Shown: one piece after another, positions 2,685 to 42,098 of the stretch | Layout: every line of letters begins with the position of its first letter | Numbering within the stretch: position 1 is the stretch's first letter | IMG/VR virus record: IMGVR_UViG_3300001598_001658 | Location: 81,492 to 145,491 of that record | Source of the DNA: a virus | Lineage: Duplodnaviria; Caudoviricetes | DNA: 64,000 nucleotides | Direction: 5' to 3' (one strand) | Notes under the pieces: model-generated | Database searches by the model: none | The model's input: only the letters and a program-made list of their open reading frames with translations | What the model was told of the DNA's origin: nothing | Made by a program: the position numbers and the translations under genes

Positions 2685-4724
2685 TTAAATATAAATATTA
2701 TCTGTTTTTACATGATCAACCGTTACTTTGTTTCTATTCCAAGCAACAAAAGGTTTCATCAATAATGAATTATTAAAATTATAACCGATATTATGTAATG
2801 AAAAATTAGTTTTCATACTATCGCGAATAAGTGCAACGTAGTTATCGAATTTACGAGCCATATCGTATCTATCTGCGATAGATAAGTTACACATAGTAGC
2901 AATATATTCAGATAAACCGCCATTTGCACGTTTATATTTCCAGAATGCACCATTACCCAATGAAAGCATCATAACTGGAGACAAATCTTTTACAGTTACA
3001 GATACTTTAATAGAACGTGGGAAATTAAATTTAGTTCTATCATTTGCTCCGTCGCCACGAGTTACACTCATAGATTCAATGATACCCATATCGATAGAGA
3101 ATAATCCTTTTGAGAATACTTTGATGATAAATGGTGACATATAAGATGAATAACCAGTTTGTAATGGAGCGCTTAATACCATAAGAAGGAGATAAGGAAT
3201 ATAAACGTTTTCAAAAATAGAAACAGTATCGCCTGTAGGAGACCAGAATTTGAAATCTATAGAATAAGATCTAGAATATGATGAACCAGCCCATACCTCT
3301 GGAATAGCCATACGACCATCACCATTCATAATAGCACCTAATTCCGATCCATTAGACAATATCTCTTTTCCGACTTTTGCACCAACTTCGGTAACTACTT
3401 TATTTATGATTTCATCCACACTTTTAGCACCACCATTCATCAATGTATCTTTCATTCCTGAAACCATTGTCATAGATGAGCCAAAACCTTTTTTGTTAGC
3501 ACTATCTTCTGACATAGAATTGATTTCTCCGGCTATAGGATGTTCTTTGGTAGAGTTGCTAAATGTTTCTGAAATAGATATATTTGATTGACACAAATAA
3601 GGTAAATAACTCATACTTTCTATACTAGCGAAATGTGGGCTAAGACCTTTTCCGTTATTAAATGTGCTATGAGGAATCATATCGATAACGTCTAATCTAG
3701 GAAATGAACCTCTATATGAAGAAGCTAAATTAAGTTTAGCTTCTCTTAATGACGATGTGATAGATTGTAAAACTCTAGAATCTCCAAAATTACTATGAGT
3801 TCCATCTTCGCTCTGTTCAATAGATGCACCATCTCCAAATATTTCATTCTTTTCATTTTCTGGAATATTTTTAAATACTTCTTTTAATTCTTTATCCTTT
3901 TTAATTTCGGTTTTTATTTCATCGGATGTGCTACCTTTAACCAAATCAAAATTTAATCCTTCTATAAAATTTTCTTTAGTTAAATCAAGAAGTCCTAAAT
4001 TTGCTGCAAATTCTCTTAATAAATTATTTGCCATATTTCGATATAAAGGCATTGCATCTTTAAATGTTATAAATTTAGATACATCTCCAAAATTGGCACC
4101 GAATAAACCTAAAACACCTTCTATAGCTCCAAGTGTAACGTTTTTAATACTAACTAATCCAAGAGCTATTTTATTTTCAATACTATTATCTCCACCACTT
4201 CTAATATAATTATTCAAAACTTTATGATCTGCACCAAGACCTTTTGTGAAAAATGAAAGAATATTTGCATTTAATTTTTCTCTACCAGGTTTAAATGTTA
4301 AAATTGGAAAGTTTGCATAAATGTAAGTTAAATAAACTCTACCCATATGTGGATATGAAGGATTACTCCTTACATCATCTAATTCATTAAATTGCCAAGG
4401 TGGATTTATAACCGGACTTTCACCTACACGTAAAGAAATATCTTCACACGCTGAGTCTGAATCATTTTCTCGACTCCACATACCAAATGACAATTTATGT
4501 GTAATTCCGTCTCTTTTTGAAGATTCCATAAGATCCTCAACACGTTCGTTGATATCATTTATAGCGTCTAAACCTCCAGATGCTGCATAATTTTCATCTC
4601 TAAACGTCTTAAGAGGAATCGATAAAATATCTTGTTCTTTTATTTCATTTTTTATTTCTCGCGTAATATCGGATGCGAGATTTCTTAAACTCATTTCCTT
4701 TGAAATTATTGTATTCTTTGGCAT
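2685..4724 (-). CDS. Putative baseplate/tail-tube initiator structural protein
   Basis: 679 aa, next to the tape measure gene. C-terminal 'PEVWAGSSYSRSYSIDFKFWSP...GIIESMSVTRG...FPRSIKVSVTVKDL' resembles tail-tube-fold (gp48/54-like) domains. AAGGAG RBS; GACA-N6-TA promoter. Confidence 0.5.
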   Translation of the reverse strand: MPKNTIISKEMSLRNLASDITREIKNEIKEQDILSIPLKTFRDENYAASGGLDAINDINERVEDLMESSKRDGITHKLSFGMWSRENDSDSACEDISLRVGESPVINPPWQFNELDDVRSNPSYPHMGRVYLTYIYANFPILTFKPGREKLNANILSFFTKGLGADHKVLNNYIRSGGDNSIENKIALGLVSIKNVTLGAIEGVLGLFGANFGDVSKFITFKDAMPLYRNMANNLLREFAANLGLLDLTKENFIEGLNFDLVKGSTSDEIKTEIKKDKELKEVFKNIPENEKNEIFGDGASIEQSEDGTHSNFGDSRVLQSITSSLREAKLNLASSYRGSFPRLDVIDMIPHSTFNNGKGLSPHFASIESMSYLPYLCQSNISISETFSNSTKEHPIAGEINSMSEDSANKKGFGSSMTMVSGMKDTLMNGGAKSVDEIINKVVTEVGAKVGKEILSNGSELGAIMNGDGRMAIPEVWAGSSYSRSYSIDFKFWSPTGDTVSIFENVYIPYLLLMVLSAPLQTGYSSYMSPFIIKVFSKGLFSIDMGIIESMSVTRGDGANDRTKFNFPRSIKVSVTVKDLSPVMMLSLGNGAFWKYKRANGGLSEYIATMCNLSIADRYDMARKFDNYVALIRDSMKTNFSLHNIGYNFNNSLLMKPFVAWNRNKVTVDHVKTDNIYI

Positions 4725-4814: not shown

Positions 4815-7800
4815 TTATAAACCATTAGCAAGTTTATCAAACATGCCTTTGGTTATACTTGTAGAACTACCAGCTGTAGAGAATCCATTATTGTTACTTG
4901 CAATAATAGCTGCCCCAATACCAGCAATTCCAGCCATTAAATTTTTATAGAAAACCTCTTCGATCTGATTATGACGTTTAGTTTCATTTAATAATTCTCT
5001 CATTATTTCTACACCCTCAGAAGCTATATTATATAACTCATCAAATTTAGCAACAACAAGATTAGATGTAACTACGCCACTCTTTTCGGCAAGAGCATTT
5101 CCTTTTTCATTTAACTTAGAAACGGTTTCTTTTGCTTTATTCTTAACAGTCTTATAACCATTAAGAACAAGTGGATTAGAAATCTTAGCAGGTAATTTCT
5201 TGTAATCTATATTTGAAATATACTTACTTGCATTTGAAGCTACATTCTTTAAAGTAGATCTGAAATTAATAGCATCTGCTTGTTGTGTTTGTGCAACTGT
5301 AGCAGATCCACCTACTGGTGTATTAGGTAATTTGAAATTAGGATCTCCTAATTCAAAATGTGGTTTATCTGGCGTTGACCAGTATCCACCCCAATCGATT
5401 CCATATTCCTTTGCAATTGCACCAAGTTTATCATATCCAATATCTCCTGGTTCCAAGTCAACGGCAGAACCATTGAAATGGTTTGAAGCAAGAGTCCAAG
5501 TAATATAATCACCTGGTTTTTGGAATGATTTTGGCCAGAAATTAATACCATCTTTAAATCCTGCATATTTCATCAATTTGTCTGTTACCCAAGAAGGAGA
5601 TCTTCCTTTTGAATAATAAGCTAACTGAGTAGCAGGTGGTCTGTATGATTCACGAATAGAAACACCATGACCTTGAACTCTAGGATCTTTTAAGAATGCT
5701 TCGACTCTTTCGGCAAATACAGGGGAAAGAACCGATGTACTCTTTTGTTGTCCTAAAGCATTTTTATCAACAATATTTTTCTGGAGAGCAATTACATCAT
5801 TTACTCCGGTTTCATCATTGAATTTAGAACTTAATTCGAGTTCCATTTGTTTTCGTCTAGTGACAAATTCACCAATGGCATTAGCAGAACCTTTAATTTT
5901 ACTAAATATATTAGTGGCTCCAGATGCAACATTTTTTGATGCTCCTACTATTTTACTAGCAAGATTAGCTGCACCTTTAGCAAGCTTTCCACCAACAGCT
6001 TTGAGACCCGCTTTAAATCCTTTTTTCTGAGGTTTAATACCATTTCTTACAGCGGTCAATTTATCAAGAGCATTACTCTTAGATTCGTTTAATTTAGCAA
6101 GAGTATTCCATCCTGCAAAATATTTAGAATCAGTCATCTTTTTAAAATTAATACCGTCTGCTTGAAGTTCGTTTTCTTTATTAGTATCTTTATTGTCTCC
6201 AGTAATAGGTTTAGCTGTACCTTCAGCATTACTTACCGGATTAGGTTTTTCATTATTAGAGACAGATATTTTAGAAGAACCTGAAATATCAGTATTAATT
6301 TCATTATCCATTTTAGCATCCGGAAGATCAGGTTTAACAACAGTTTCTTCACTCTTAAGGTTTATTCCTTCTTTAGATAATTCCGCTGTACCTTCAGCAT
6401 TTTCTTTTGCTAAATTATTTTCATCTGTTTCTTTTTCTACAACAGCTGTTTCTTCATCATGTTTTTTGATTTCATCTTCTTCAGATTTACCTTTGCCTAA
6501 AGGACCAAGACCAGAGAGTTTATTTTTAGCCATATATGCTTTCGCAGCTTTCAAATATTCTTCTCTGAATTTAGCCTGATTATCTAATGCAGCTACATCA
6601 TCAGGATTGATTTTCTTGTCAACTTTACCACCATTAGCTTTAATCATTTCTTTATACATATCATCCAAAGGTTTATATACTTTCTCAAACCATGTTTTGA
6701 AACGTTCTATTGCACCTTTATCCTTTTTATCTTTCATAAAGCCAAGTATTGTAGCTCGTTTCTTATCTTGACCAAATACAATTTCAGTCCATGTCATAGT
6801 TTCGAATTCAACAAGTCTTCCATACTCAACTTCCATAATACTTGCACGTTGTTTATCGAACTCTTCAGCTGATTTCATCTGTTCTTTAGTAGCTTTAGAA
6901 CCAATGATTCCAAATACTAAATTAGCAATTGCATCAGGTGGAATTAATCCTAATGTTAAATTACCAGATATAGCTTTAGCTAAACCGGCAGTTATTCTCA
7001 TAGGCCATGTAGGTTTCATTCCTTTACCCATTTTAAAGTATCTAGGAGCTTCCGCCATACCTGTACCGATATCATAAACTAACTGTGCAACCATTACAGC
7101 CCAACCTACCCCGTTAGATATTTTAGCACAGAATGCTGTAATCTTACTAGATATTTTAGCTATTAATTTTGCTCCACCTTTAGTTAAGGATTTTTCCATC
7201 GATTTGATAAATGCTTTACTTACAGAATCTGCAGCTGCTTTACCACCAATTTTTGCGACAAGCTTAGGATCTTTAAATAGTTTAGCAACTAAACCTGAGA
7301 ATTTAGTAAATATTGCAGGAAGTTTACTTACACCCTTAGCAAATGTAGCAACATGTACTGCTTGATTTAATCCAAATCCTTTTCCAGCTTTTATATTTTT
7401 ATCTGTGATTTCATTACCATTGTTATCATAATTACCAGAGCCTCCGGCACCAAATAAACCAGAAACTTTTTCTCCAACAGAAGAATTTTTCCAATCTAAT
7501 TTTGTAGTTTTAAATTTATTAACAACTTGTTTTCCAAGCATAGCTGCACCTGCGGCAGCTGCACCAATAGTTGCAACGCCACCAGCGGTTTGTATCCCGG
7601 CTGCTATTTTACCACCAGCCGTTCCGAGTTTACTCCACTTAGATAAACTATTACCACCACCATCACCTTTTCCAACAGGCTTATTTTTTATATCCTCAAG
7701 TAATTCACCTTGTTTTTCAGAATTTTGATAATTAGCCATTAACAAACTACCAATATCCGGATTTGGCATAGCTGTTTCTTTTGCAGCAGCAGCTATAGTT

Positions 7801-40464: not shown

Positions 40465-40477
40465 AAATAAAAAAAAG

Positions 40478-40505
40478 AAACTCCGGAGATATTCTCCGGA
40501 GTTTC
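40478..40505. terminator. Bidirectional terminator ending the neck gene (+) and the RNA operon (-)
   Basis: GAAACTCCGGAGA-tat-TCTCCGGAGTTTC, with a long T-tract on the minus strand. Confidence 0.85.
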
Positions 40506-40509
40506 AAAT

Positions 40510-41355
40510 TTGTCTAGTTCTCGTATAGACACTGATCAATCAGAAATGCAGGCTGTCGAGGAATCTACCTATATGGTAGCCCTTGCAGAAGTTCCGACTT
40601 ACAATCCAAAACCAGACGCATTCCTCCTCTTCATTTTCTTATTCGCGATCGAGCCTCACCGCGCTCATAGGAATGCTGATTATTTATTTCTACTCCCTCA
40701 AGTATTCTATTTTCATAGCTTACTTAATATCTCTGTAGAAACTAACTGAATTCTACTTTCAAATGGATGGACTACGTTCCACTTTACTATTTCGAAGATT
40801 CTCAACGCATGCGAATTCTGCTACATACGTACATTATCAGCTGTCGCTGAATCTTATAAGGAATAATATAAACATTTGGGTCACTAATTTACTCGCCTCG
40901 TATAATTAACTCAGATTCATTGCTAATCATATAAAGTTTTCTAAAAGCCTTCTTCTGTTCCCATATTTGTCATTAAAATTAGATAAAGATAAAAATCGAT
41001 ATAAATATCAACGTTCATCTCTAGTCCGTCTAATTAATACTTGTCCGACATCAACAGAAGTATCGATGTCCTTAATCATAAAGTGCTTACCCAATGGCAT
41101 CACATTCCTTATGATAAGACTATTTGACGACAATAGCGCTGTTTCGAGCATGGTGCACTCCACCACAATCCATTCGAGTTGAAACAATTTAAAAATCATC
41201 TCTTTTAACACATCTCGTGATCTCGTTGTTTTCAGAGAATTGCTCGTTTCTCTATTACACCTTTTTACCACTTGATTCTTATGAACAGTCCAACGAACAT
41301 AAGCAGGACAACTATTGTGTGTAATACAAATCCCATCTAGCAGTGCCAGATGATT
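40510..41355 (-). ncRNA. Large structured ncRNA (GOLLD/ROOL-like class or new; may be two RNAs)
   Basis: About 850 nt with no RBS-led ORF and higher GC than the flanks; dense hairpins with several crossing pairings; runs from tRNA-Gln to the terminator. Confidence 0.65.
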
Positions 41356-41357
41356 AG

Positions 41358-41428
41358 CTCGGCCAGCAGGATTTGAACCCGCGAATTCGGCACCAAAAGC
41401 CGATGGCATACCGCTTACCGACAGCCGA
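41358..41428 (-). tRNA. tRNA-Gln(UUG)
   Basis: TCGGCTG/TGGCCGA acceptor; anticodon arm TCGGC-TTTTGGT-GCCGA; T arm GCGGG-TTCAAAT-CCTGC; no encoded CCA. Confidence 0.9.
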
Positions 41429-41441
41429 AAAAATAAAAAGC

Positions 41442-41540
41442 GAAGAGATAGCCGTTAAAAGAAGTCTACATCGTTTATTGCCTCCAAGAGCGTAACTACT
41501 CCTGTGTTTAATAACTATCTCTTCTAGCAGCAACGCTGCC
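41442..41540 (-). ncRNA. Spacer RNA D: end-paired structured RNA
   Basis: GAAGAGATAGTT...GGCTATCTCTTC 12-bp closing stem (G-U pairs favour the minus strand), preceded by a GGCAGC-GTT-GCTGCT hairpin and followed by a U-tract. Confidence 0.55.
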
Positions 41541-41543
41541 TAT

Positions 41544-41667
41544 CGGCCACTGTACGAATTGAACGCACACTTTTATATGCAAACAGGGCTTAAAGATTAC
41601 AACAGATACAGTAGAAGTATCTCTCTTAGTTTGCACATAATGTAGCTACCATTACTACCAAAAGGCC
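41544..41667 (-). ncRNA. tRNA-like RNA with a giant extended anticodon arm (124 nt)
   Basis: Acceptor GGCCTTT/AGTGGCC; D arm GTAG-TAATGGTAG-CTAC; T arm GTGCG-TTCAATT-CGTAC; anticodon arm is a 12-bp stem enclosing a 44-nt insert. Confidence 0.75.
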
Positions 41668-41752: not shown

Positions 41753-41756
41753 AATA

Positions 41757-41829
41757 TGGGCCACCTAGGATTTGAACCTAGGACCAAAGGATTATGAGTC
41801 CCCTGCTCTAACCACTGAGCTAGTGGCCC
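41757..41829 (-). tRNA. tRNA with CAU anticodon, Ile2-type
   Basis: GGGCCAC-TA-GCTC-AGTGGTTA-GAGC-A-GGGGA-CTCATAA-TCCTT-TGGTC-CTAGG-TTCAAAT-CCTAG-GTGGCCC-A; resembles bacterial Ile2 more than Met tRNAs. Confidence 0.9.
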
Positions 41830-41834
41830 AAGAA

Positions 41835-42011: not shown

Positions 42012-42098
42012 TGCCGAGAACCAGACTTGAACTGGCACGCTGTTTGCACAGCAAGGGATTTTAAGTCCCTGGTGTCTACCAAATTCCACCATCTCGGC
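42012..42098 (-). tRNA. tRNA-Leu(UAA)
   Basis: GCCGAGA acceptor; AGGGA-CTTAAAA-TCCCT anticodon arm; long variable arm GCTGT-GCAA-ACAGC; T arm TTCAAGT. Confidence 0.95.

Follow-up and report, generated by a model that had tools for sequence, protein, structure and literature searches.

The window analysed here, the whole 64,000-nucleotide (nt) stretch of DNA that forms the last 64 kb of a 145,491-bp IMG/VR virus record (IMGVR_UViG_3300001598_001658), carries on its minus strand, at 41544–41667, a 124-nt gene for a transfer RNA (tRNA)-shaped RNA in which a long arm replaces the anticodon stem-loop. CheckV places the completeness of the record at ~51%. The window has a G+C content of 30%, and stop-free frames of at least 100 codons in the standard code cover 92% of its length. 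It encodes a phiKZ-type prohead protease (Peptidase_S80), a tail tube protein, a head–tail joining protein, a 3147-amino-acid (aa) tape-measure-like protein with peptidoglycan hydrolase domains and an SbcC-like ATPase. The DNA is therefore part of a large (jumbo) myovirus-like phage, a giant of gut or rumen. It has no close isolated relative, the best tblastn identity being 26%, and the metagenome-assembled genomes with which two related contigs had been binned, 'Bacilli' and 'Anaeroplasmataceae', give a slight hint of the host.

A tRNA body with a long arm

The RNA runs from a 5' end at 41667 to a discriminator G at 41544, and no CCA is encoded. Its acceptor stem is formed by GGCCUUU (41661–41667) and AGUGGCC (41545–41551), strands that pair both in the predicted fold and in the alignment of homologs, with one U·U and one U·G among the pairs. 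Position 3–70 is C-G and not G·U, bearing out the remark of an initial annotation, made from the sequence alone, that the G3-U70 identity is absent. A transfer-messenger RNA was rejected for the same reason, and ARAGORN finds none. The D arm, GUAG-UAAUGGUAG-CUAC with G18 G19 (41642–41658), shows the strongest conservation within the family described below. It is followed, after the long arm, by a 4-nt variable loop, AAGU (41569–41572), and by the T arm, GUGCG-UUCAAUU-CGUAC (41552–41568).

The arm that stands where an anticodon stem-loop would be is 68 nt long (41573–41640). Its basal helix of 12 bp, UUAUGUGCAAAC/GUUUGCAUAUAA (41629–41640 with 41573–41584), occupies the normal anticodon stem position with its first 5 bp and encloses 44 nt. 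Within these lies a distal hairpin, AGAUAC-UUCUACU-GUAUCU (41604–41622), whose loop spans 41610–41616 with CUA at 41612–41614. The 3' junction of the arm (41585–41603) has 16 unpaired nt, and its first bases pair with 41624–41625 in the minimum-free-energy fold. The initial annotation had described these features, from the U-U mismatch in the acceptor stem to the UUCAAUU T loop and the 12-bp helix with its 44 enclosed nt, and all of them are present on the minus strand; independent folding reproduced the arm as described. The minimum-free-energy fold of the 124-nt RNA is a cloverleaf with a long arm (−37.8 kcal/mol, z = −3.9), a stability equalled by one of 200 shuffled sequences. Folded alone, the arm reached −18.8 kcal/mol (z = −4.4), which none of 200 shuffles equalled.

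The body has the 7-bp acceptor stem and discriminator, the D arm with G18G19, the T loop of the form UUCRANY and the G53–C61 pair of a tRNA. The RNA departs from a tRNA in the anticodon arm, where a 5-bp stem and a 7-nt loop with U33 would be expected; in the homologs, loops or arms of 11–61 nt occupy this place. ARAGORN at default settings, with introns allowed or not, left the RNA uncalled, and Rfam, RF00005 included, gave no match even at E values up to 10. With introns allowed, as the initial annotation had suggested, the gene was called only at a lowered threshold (-ps95 -i), as a 73-nt 'tRNA-Gln(UUG)' with a 51-nt intron. A covariance model (R1) scored it at 108 bits, as the sole strong match in the 145-kb record.

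Homologs, covariation and place in the operon

Homologs were found in syntenic tRNA islands of related metagenomic phages, which were reached through the SbcC-like neighbour. Relatives of this ATPase at 65–70% identity are present in Logan, ENA and NCBI assemblies, on contigs with the gene order protease, 249-aa virion protein, a non-coding gap of ~0.5–2.3 kb, a 114-aa gene, an ~85-aa gene and SbcC. Distant relatives, with SbcC-like proteins at 43–55% identity, lack the gap and its tRNAs. Two homologs have long arms: that of locus L016 (identical in L017) is 117 nt long with an arm of 61 nt, and that of L018 is 111 nt long with an arm of 55 nt. With the window gene they share the D loop UAAYGGUAG, a 4-nt variable loop (AAGA in both) and the T arm. 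Two further homologs, in L002 (79 nt) and L003 (83 nt), have an oversized loop of 11–15 nt instead and lie at another place in the island; their variable loop is AGGU, and their D arm is that of the window gene letter for letter.

When a covariance model was trained on the three long-armed genes, it retrieved all five members and made no other convincing match in the loci or in the record. The model search did not find the gene in loci L005, L019, L027 and L028, and in L007–L010 the entire tRNA island is missing. Wider searches were likewise negative. Patterns of the D arm gave only chance matches in coding regions of IMG/VR, and a pattern extending from the D arm to the T arm, run against JGI metagenomes, IMG/VR and GTDB genomes, found only adjacent tRNA pairs. 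A pattern for the adjoining spacer RNA, which is described below, had no match in IMG/VR and 24 in GTDB, none of them fitting the model. Among 80 distant IMG/VR relatives of the SbcC-like gene there was no model match. As to the type of tRNA from which the family may descend, a blastn search with the L002 gene against phage records returned only matches to tRNA-Arg at E = 2, and the tRNA-Arg(UCU) of L027 fails to align with the family.

In the model-guided alignment of the homologs, the body helices comprise 16 pairs, and 96.3% of the cells are paired. Twelve of the 16 pairs have changed on both sides, a number that none of 500 shuffles reached, and slid controls gave 34–43% pairing; the sample is small, with five sequences in a model-fitted alignment. 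The changes include six of the seven acceptor pairs and four of the five pairs of the T arm. Compensation is also visible in the raw sequences: in the D stem, GUAG/CUAC is replaced in L018 by AUGG/CCAU, two compensatory pairs, while the T stem reads GUGCG/CGUAC, UCACG/CGUGA or GUUGG/CCAAC. All members keep U8, G18G19, U54U55C56, the T loop UUCRAWU and the G53–C61 pair. The bodies have diverged to 62–77% identity among the three long-armed genes and to 48–77% across all lineages, L002 versus L003 apart. Because the homologs keep three body helices with compensatory changes, the family stands beyond chance, and the window gene is a real, conserved and previously unannotated RNA gene.

The arm behaves differently. 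Between the long arms of the window, L016 and L018, which span 55–68 nt, we counted 36, 38 and 34 identities, as compared with means of 38, 36 and 32 for shuffled sequences, so that the window arm is unrelated in sequence to the other two. L002 and L003 are 93% identical in the body and 70% identical in the arm. Folding of the arms was nevertheless stronger than that of shuffles in two of the three cases, with z = −4.4 for the window and z = −3.2 for L018 (none of 200 shuffles as good for either) and z = −1.8 for L016. The arms of the window and L018 share a plan, namely a basal helix of 11–12 bp, a distal hairpin of 6–8 bp and a 3' junction of 10–16 nt (10 nt in L018). The loop UU-CUA-CU is present in this genome only; the distal loop of L018 has 3–5 nt, and L016 has no comparable hairpin.

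The gene occupies a fixed place in an RNA operon, in which tRNA-shaped units alternate with stem-closed spacer RNAs. The first tRNA of the operon is a tRNA-Leu(UAA) (42012–42098), and the upstream neighbour of the 124-nt gene is a tRNA-Met/Ile2(CAU) (41756–41830; 71.3 bits in Rfam). Downstream lie a conserved spacer RNA of ~110 nt, spacer RNA 'D' (41429–41543; 73% mean column identity in a six-locus alignment), and a canonical tRNA-Gln(UUG) (41357–41428). The three tRNAs were recognized by both ARAGORN and Rfam, and all these units are on the minus strand. After ~850 nt of conserved sequence poor in open reading frames (ORFs), a strong hairpin with a U-run (40477–40505, minus strand) closes the operon as its terminator. 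None of the tRNAs of the operon encodes CCA. In six of six loci, the spacer RNA begins 2–4 nt past the discriminator of a tRNA-shaped unit. The window, L016 and L018 have the tRNA-like gene in this place, L005 has a tRNA-Met, and L002 and L003 have a tRNA-Leu.

Decoding, proposed processing and possible role of the arm

The CUA in the distal loop had led the initial annotation to list an aberrant amber reader among its readings. This proposal found no support and was rejected. The loop occurs in no homolog, and with 92% of the window covered by standard-code frames, reading it does not call for a recoding of amber. The geometry is wrong as well: the loop lies ~20 bp past the normal position, and an arm too long by that amount could not place it in the decoding centre. 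We assign essentially no probability to decoding of amber codons by this RNA.

No other anticodon emerges from the family. When the arms are read through, the five members give the loops UGCAAAC, GUAUUAA, CUGAAAC, CUGUCAU and CUGUGCU, and when the inserts are removed as ARAGORN models them, the identities are Gln, Phe, Lys, Ile and Thr. No excision rule yields one common anticodon, even between L002 and L003. These results bear on the proposal that the gene is an intron-bearing tRNA, from which an endonuclease and ligase, or some other route, would remove the insert to leave a tRNA(UUG) with the loop U-U-UUG-C-A. The call made by ARAGORN at lowered threshold is of this kind, the L018 gene yields on such a reading a tRNA-Lys(UUU) whose loop, CU-UUU-AG, is a good one, the pairing between insert and presumptive anticodon is like that of eukaryotic pre-tRNAs, and predicted inserts in phage tRNA genes have been published (PMC6784885). 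Five different anticodons under either excision rule, with L002 and L003 at 93% body identity among them, are however hard to reconcile with splicing. The spliced loop would carry C37, and the product would be redundant with the canonical tRNA-Gln(UUG) 115 nt downstream. Moreover, eight junctions are possible, and by our estimate a loop with U33 and a purine at 37 is expected by chance in most sequences. The mechanism also lacks its usual signals. The junctions lie inside an uninterrupted 12-bp helix with no bulge-helix-bulge motif, and at 51 nt the insert is far below the ~200-nt minimum of a group I intron with its P1–P9 core, and no Rfam intron family matched; on this last point the initial annotation, which held the insert too short for a group I intron, was right. 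EndA, RtcB, Rnl1 and Rnl2-type (T4-type RNA ligase) domains were not found in the ~51% complete record, and neither were RNA repair or RNase III enzymes, a result that is uninformative with about half of the genome in hand. On this evidence an intron-bearing tRNA is very unlikely, and the precursor needing cleavage and ligation that the initial annotation had proposed is unlikely.

We favour instead, with a probability of about one in two, a non-decoding tRNA-shaped RNA that is excised by RNase P and RNase Z from a phage tRNA and non-coding RNA operon and that carries a variable, structured arm. Comparison of the loci establishes that the fold is conserved and covaries, that the arm is hypervariable, that the members have no anticodon in common and that the gene has a fixed place before the spacer RNA. 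From these we infer that RNase P and RNase Z process the RNA, that the product is stable and that the arm has some role, which might be protein docking, action as a decoy for factors that bind or cleave tRNAs, or service as a domain of the neighbouring large RNA. The suggestion of the initial annotation that the RNA is a tRNA mimic, or an RNA stabilized by a tRNA scaffold, fits the comparative data, in which the body covaries and the arm is hypervariable yet structured.

RNase P, RNase Z and the CCA-adding enzyme read the acceptor/T stack and the elbow of their substrates and not the anticodon arm, and the absence of an encoded CCA in bacterial tRNA genes points to RNase Z for 3' processing. 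The same enzyme recognition has been shown for a tRNA-like Y RNA (PMC4201824). In the mechanism that we propose, the acceptor stem, D arm and T arm would form a normal tRNA elbow and a coaxial acceptor/T stack, and RNase P and RNase Z of the host, the latter on the route taken by CCA-less precursors, would therefore be able to cut the RNA from a long transcript. The same cut would set the 5' end of the spacer RNA 2–4 nt downstream. The product would be a stable tRNA-like particle, with a rigid helical arm of ~20 bp in place of the anticodon loop. Selection would preserve the tRNA body and would require of the arm that it form a stable helix, whatever its sequence; the RNA would therefore be a tRNA-shaped chassis and punctuation unit with a fast-evolving structured payload. 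Standard annotation would overlook non-decoding tRNA-shaped genes of this sort entirely.

Several observations weigh against this reading. Expression and processing of the RNA are predictions from sequence. The base of the acceptor stem is weak, with U·U and U·G here and U·U and A·A in L016, which might hinder cleavage by RNase P or RNase Z. With three long-armed lineages and two short-loop relatives, the family is small, and the shared arm plan amounts to two clear cases. In relatives, ordinary tRNAs serve for punctuation at this position, and the need for a special unit that does not decode is not obvious. The structure of the arm could stem from the origin of the insert, as a hairpin-forming insertion or an inverted duplication, and not from selection. 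Finally, a search of the 145-kb record for an antisense target of the arm gave a best complement of 13 nt, which 25 of 100 shuffles equalled, as expected by chance.

A rival reading is that the gene is the relic of an ordinary phage tRNA that lost its anticodon loop to an insertion; it would survive solely because cutting at it releases the flanking spacer RNAs, and the arm would be neutral filler. Genuine tRNAs hold the slot before the spacer RNA in L005, L002 and L003, the arm sequences are at random similarity, and the L016 arm is AU-rich and barely structured (z = −1.8). The mismatches in the acceptor stem suggest relaxed constraint, and three of the five members keep a loop start resembling C32-U33, which has the look of a tRNA relic. 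Neutral sequence so diverged should not fold, however, and the arms of the window and L018 have perfect helices of 11–12 bp on a similar plan, with the z-scores and shuffle counts given above. Nor has the arm shrunk, as all three orthologs retain 55–68 nt of it. We therefore regard a relic as unlikely, if by no means far-fetched. A conserved body with a hypervariable arm is also the pattern expected of a molecule in conflict, and the RNA might be a decoy or inhibitor of a tRNA-binding factor, such as an anticodon nuclease, a modification enzyme, a synthetase or a Ro60-like protein, with a duplex arm that is uncleavable or serves for docking and that changes in an arms race. The tRNAs of the phage are of kinds often hit by anticodon nucleases (Lys UUU, Gln UUG, Asn and Leu UAA), and jumbo phages encode RNA-repair and Ro/TROVE systems with tRNA-like partners (PMC7824862; PMC4201824). 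The Ro-binding motif GNCGAAN0-1G is nevertheless present in none of the five family members, the arms resemble no known nuclease substrate loop, and no partner for the arm was found, all of which makes a decoy quite improbable. A wider idea, which we advance tentatively, is that the tRNA body is a general phage chassis for small RNAs, whose arm payload docks or neutralizes a host or phage factor, for example a tRNA-targeting defence nuclease; the window gene would then represent a single lineage of such RNAs. If the payload neutralizes such a factor, turnover of the arm would record an arms race.

Comparison with known systems and neighbouring RNAs

A search of the literature for tRNA-like phage RNAs with an extended anticodon arm found nothing direct. 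The closest published description is that of the tRNA genes with 'enigmatic introns' in Lak megaphages (Devoto et al., 2019; PMC6784885). In both cases large AT-rich gut phages have oversized tRNA genes that bacterial finders miss or leave untyped and that can be modelled only with an insert in the anticodon loop, and in both splicing is a prediction. Lak inserts are reported to be typically identical for the same tRNA, and the anticodon can be assigned (PMC6784885). Here, in contrast, the inserts of orthologs are unrelated and there is no common anticodon; the Lak genes were compared by their description.

YrlA, which represents a type of Y RNA present in bacteria and phages, has a tRNA-like module that RNase P, the CCA-adding enzyme and modification enzymes recognize (Chen et al., 2014; PMC4201824). 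It resembles the window RNA in having an acceptor/D/T module and a long helix at the anticodon-stem position. YrlA is permuted, however, ending in a long Ro-binding helix with the GNCGAAN0-1G motif, and its gene lies beside Ro60/Rsr, whereas the window RNA ends in its acceptor stem and the motif is absent from the family. A Ro/Y-RNA module was accordingly rejected: the motif is missing, and no TROVE (Ro60/Rsr) gene was found in the 145-kb record, which is about half of the genome.

Non-decoding tRNA-shaped units at which cutting by RNase P or RNase Z defines the end of a neighbouring RNA include the t-elements of plant mitochondria, the mascRNA (MALAT1-associated small cytoplasmic RNA) of MALAT1 and the tRNA-microRNA-encoded RNAs (TMER) of murid herpesvirus 68. 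The window gene is like them a non-decoding tRNA-shaped element abutting a conserved RNA, at 2–4 nt in all six loci. They differ in being eukaryotic, organellar or from an animal virus and in having no large arm, and cleavage of the window RNA would follow their example. Species 1 and 2 of the T4 tRNA cluster (rnaC and rnaD) are stable RNAs of ~120–140 nt that are co-transcribed and co-processed with tRNAs. They match the window RNA in size class and in their tRNA-cluster setting, a resemblance that is only a lead.

The tRNA islands of phages also encode the large RNAs GOLLD and ROOL, and tRNAs are sometimes found inside the GOLLD linker (bioRxiv 10.1101/2024.12.08.627333). The operon in the window similarly combines a tRNA island with an ~850-nt ORF-poor conserved RNA region after the next tRNA, but this region matches neither GOLLD nor ROOL in Rfam, and the tRNA-like unit is at most a candidate part of it. 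Phage tRNA genes are usually read as helpers in codon usage or as spares against anticodon nucleases. The window RNA belongs with the tRNA mimics and not with the decoders; for its mechanism, beyond fold and conservation, we suggest the processing set out above. As a conserved non-decoding tRNA-shaped RNA, it would be a case of the tRNA fold being reused in phages, for example for processing, stability or docking. Together with the unexplained 'introns' of the Lak phages it suggests that tRNA-scaffolded RNAs form a wider class in phages, natural counterparts to the engineered tRNA scaffolds with which structured RNAs are expressed.

The neighbouring RNAs have features of their own. The spacer RNA (window 41429–41543, and L002, L003, L005, L016 and L018) has a 5' hairpin and a long-range closing helix. 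An invariant AAUAAAC block lies inside a (G/U)(C/U)AAUAAAC motif, and in the window the RNA ends in a U-run just before tRNA-Gln. After tRNA-Gln, every related phage has a non-coding stretch of 0.7–1.3 kb, which is probably a large structured phage RNA. It extends over 40506–41356 (minus strand) in the window, 1444–2213 in L016, 1267–2157 in L018, ~4900–6119 in L005 and 5656–6369 in L002. Conserved blocks within it are CCCUGAUGCGAGAUGCUUAA in L005, L016 and L018 and GCGGUGAGGCUCGAUCGC..AAGAAAAUGAAGAGGAG in the window and L016; the stretch has no match in Rfam, GOLLD and ROOL included. It ends in a conserved ACGAGAAC block (ACGAGAAU in L002; GUACGAGAAYCCGG in L002, L003 and L005), located at 5656–5700 in L002 and 5686–5730 in L003 (both minus strand), ~5320–5340 in L005, ~1450–1470 in L016 and ~1275–1300 in L018. 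In L002, L003, L016 and L018 this block is followed, directly or within ~15 nt at most, by a tRNA or a short-loop tRNA-like gene, so that a tRNA-shaped unit usually lies next to the large RNA on its 3' side; in L005 no tRNA follows the block.

At the head of the operon, L002 and L003 (~7057–7110, minus strand) and L018 (~3040–3090, minus strand) have a minihelix resembling half a tRNA, with an acceptor-like stem and a T arm with the loop UUCGAUU or UUCGAAU, and neither D arm nor anticodon arm. Model R1 scores it weakly, at 21.7 bits. The head of the window operon has an ordinary hairpin where the relatives have the minihelix.

A second small tRNA cluster lies outside the window (G000:C1:34366-34731) and encodes tRNA-Asn(GUU) and tRNA-Lys(UUU). 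Taken with the Gln(UUG), Leu(UAA) and CAU tRNAs of the operon, it indicates that the tRNAs of this phage serve codons ending in A or U. In two contigs of unrelated phages that have a tmRNA and ~11 tRNAs, L021 (5373–5500, minus strand) and L026 (8030–8150, plus strand), a normal tRNA-Leu(UAG) directly follows an apparent 5' half-tRNA, which consists of an acceptor strand, a GUGUAAUGGUAGCCAC D arm and the start of an anticodon stem. This arrangement, kept in both contigs, may be a truncated or nested tRNA.

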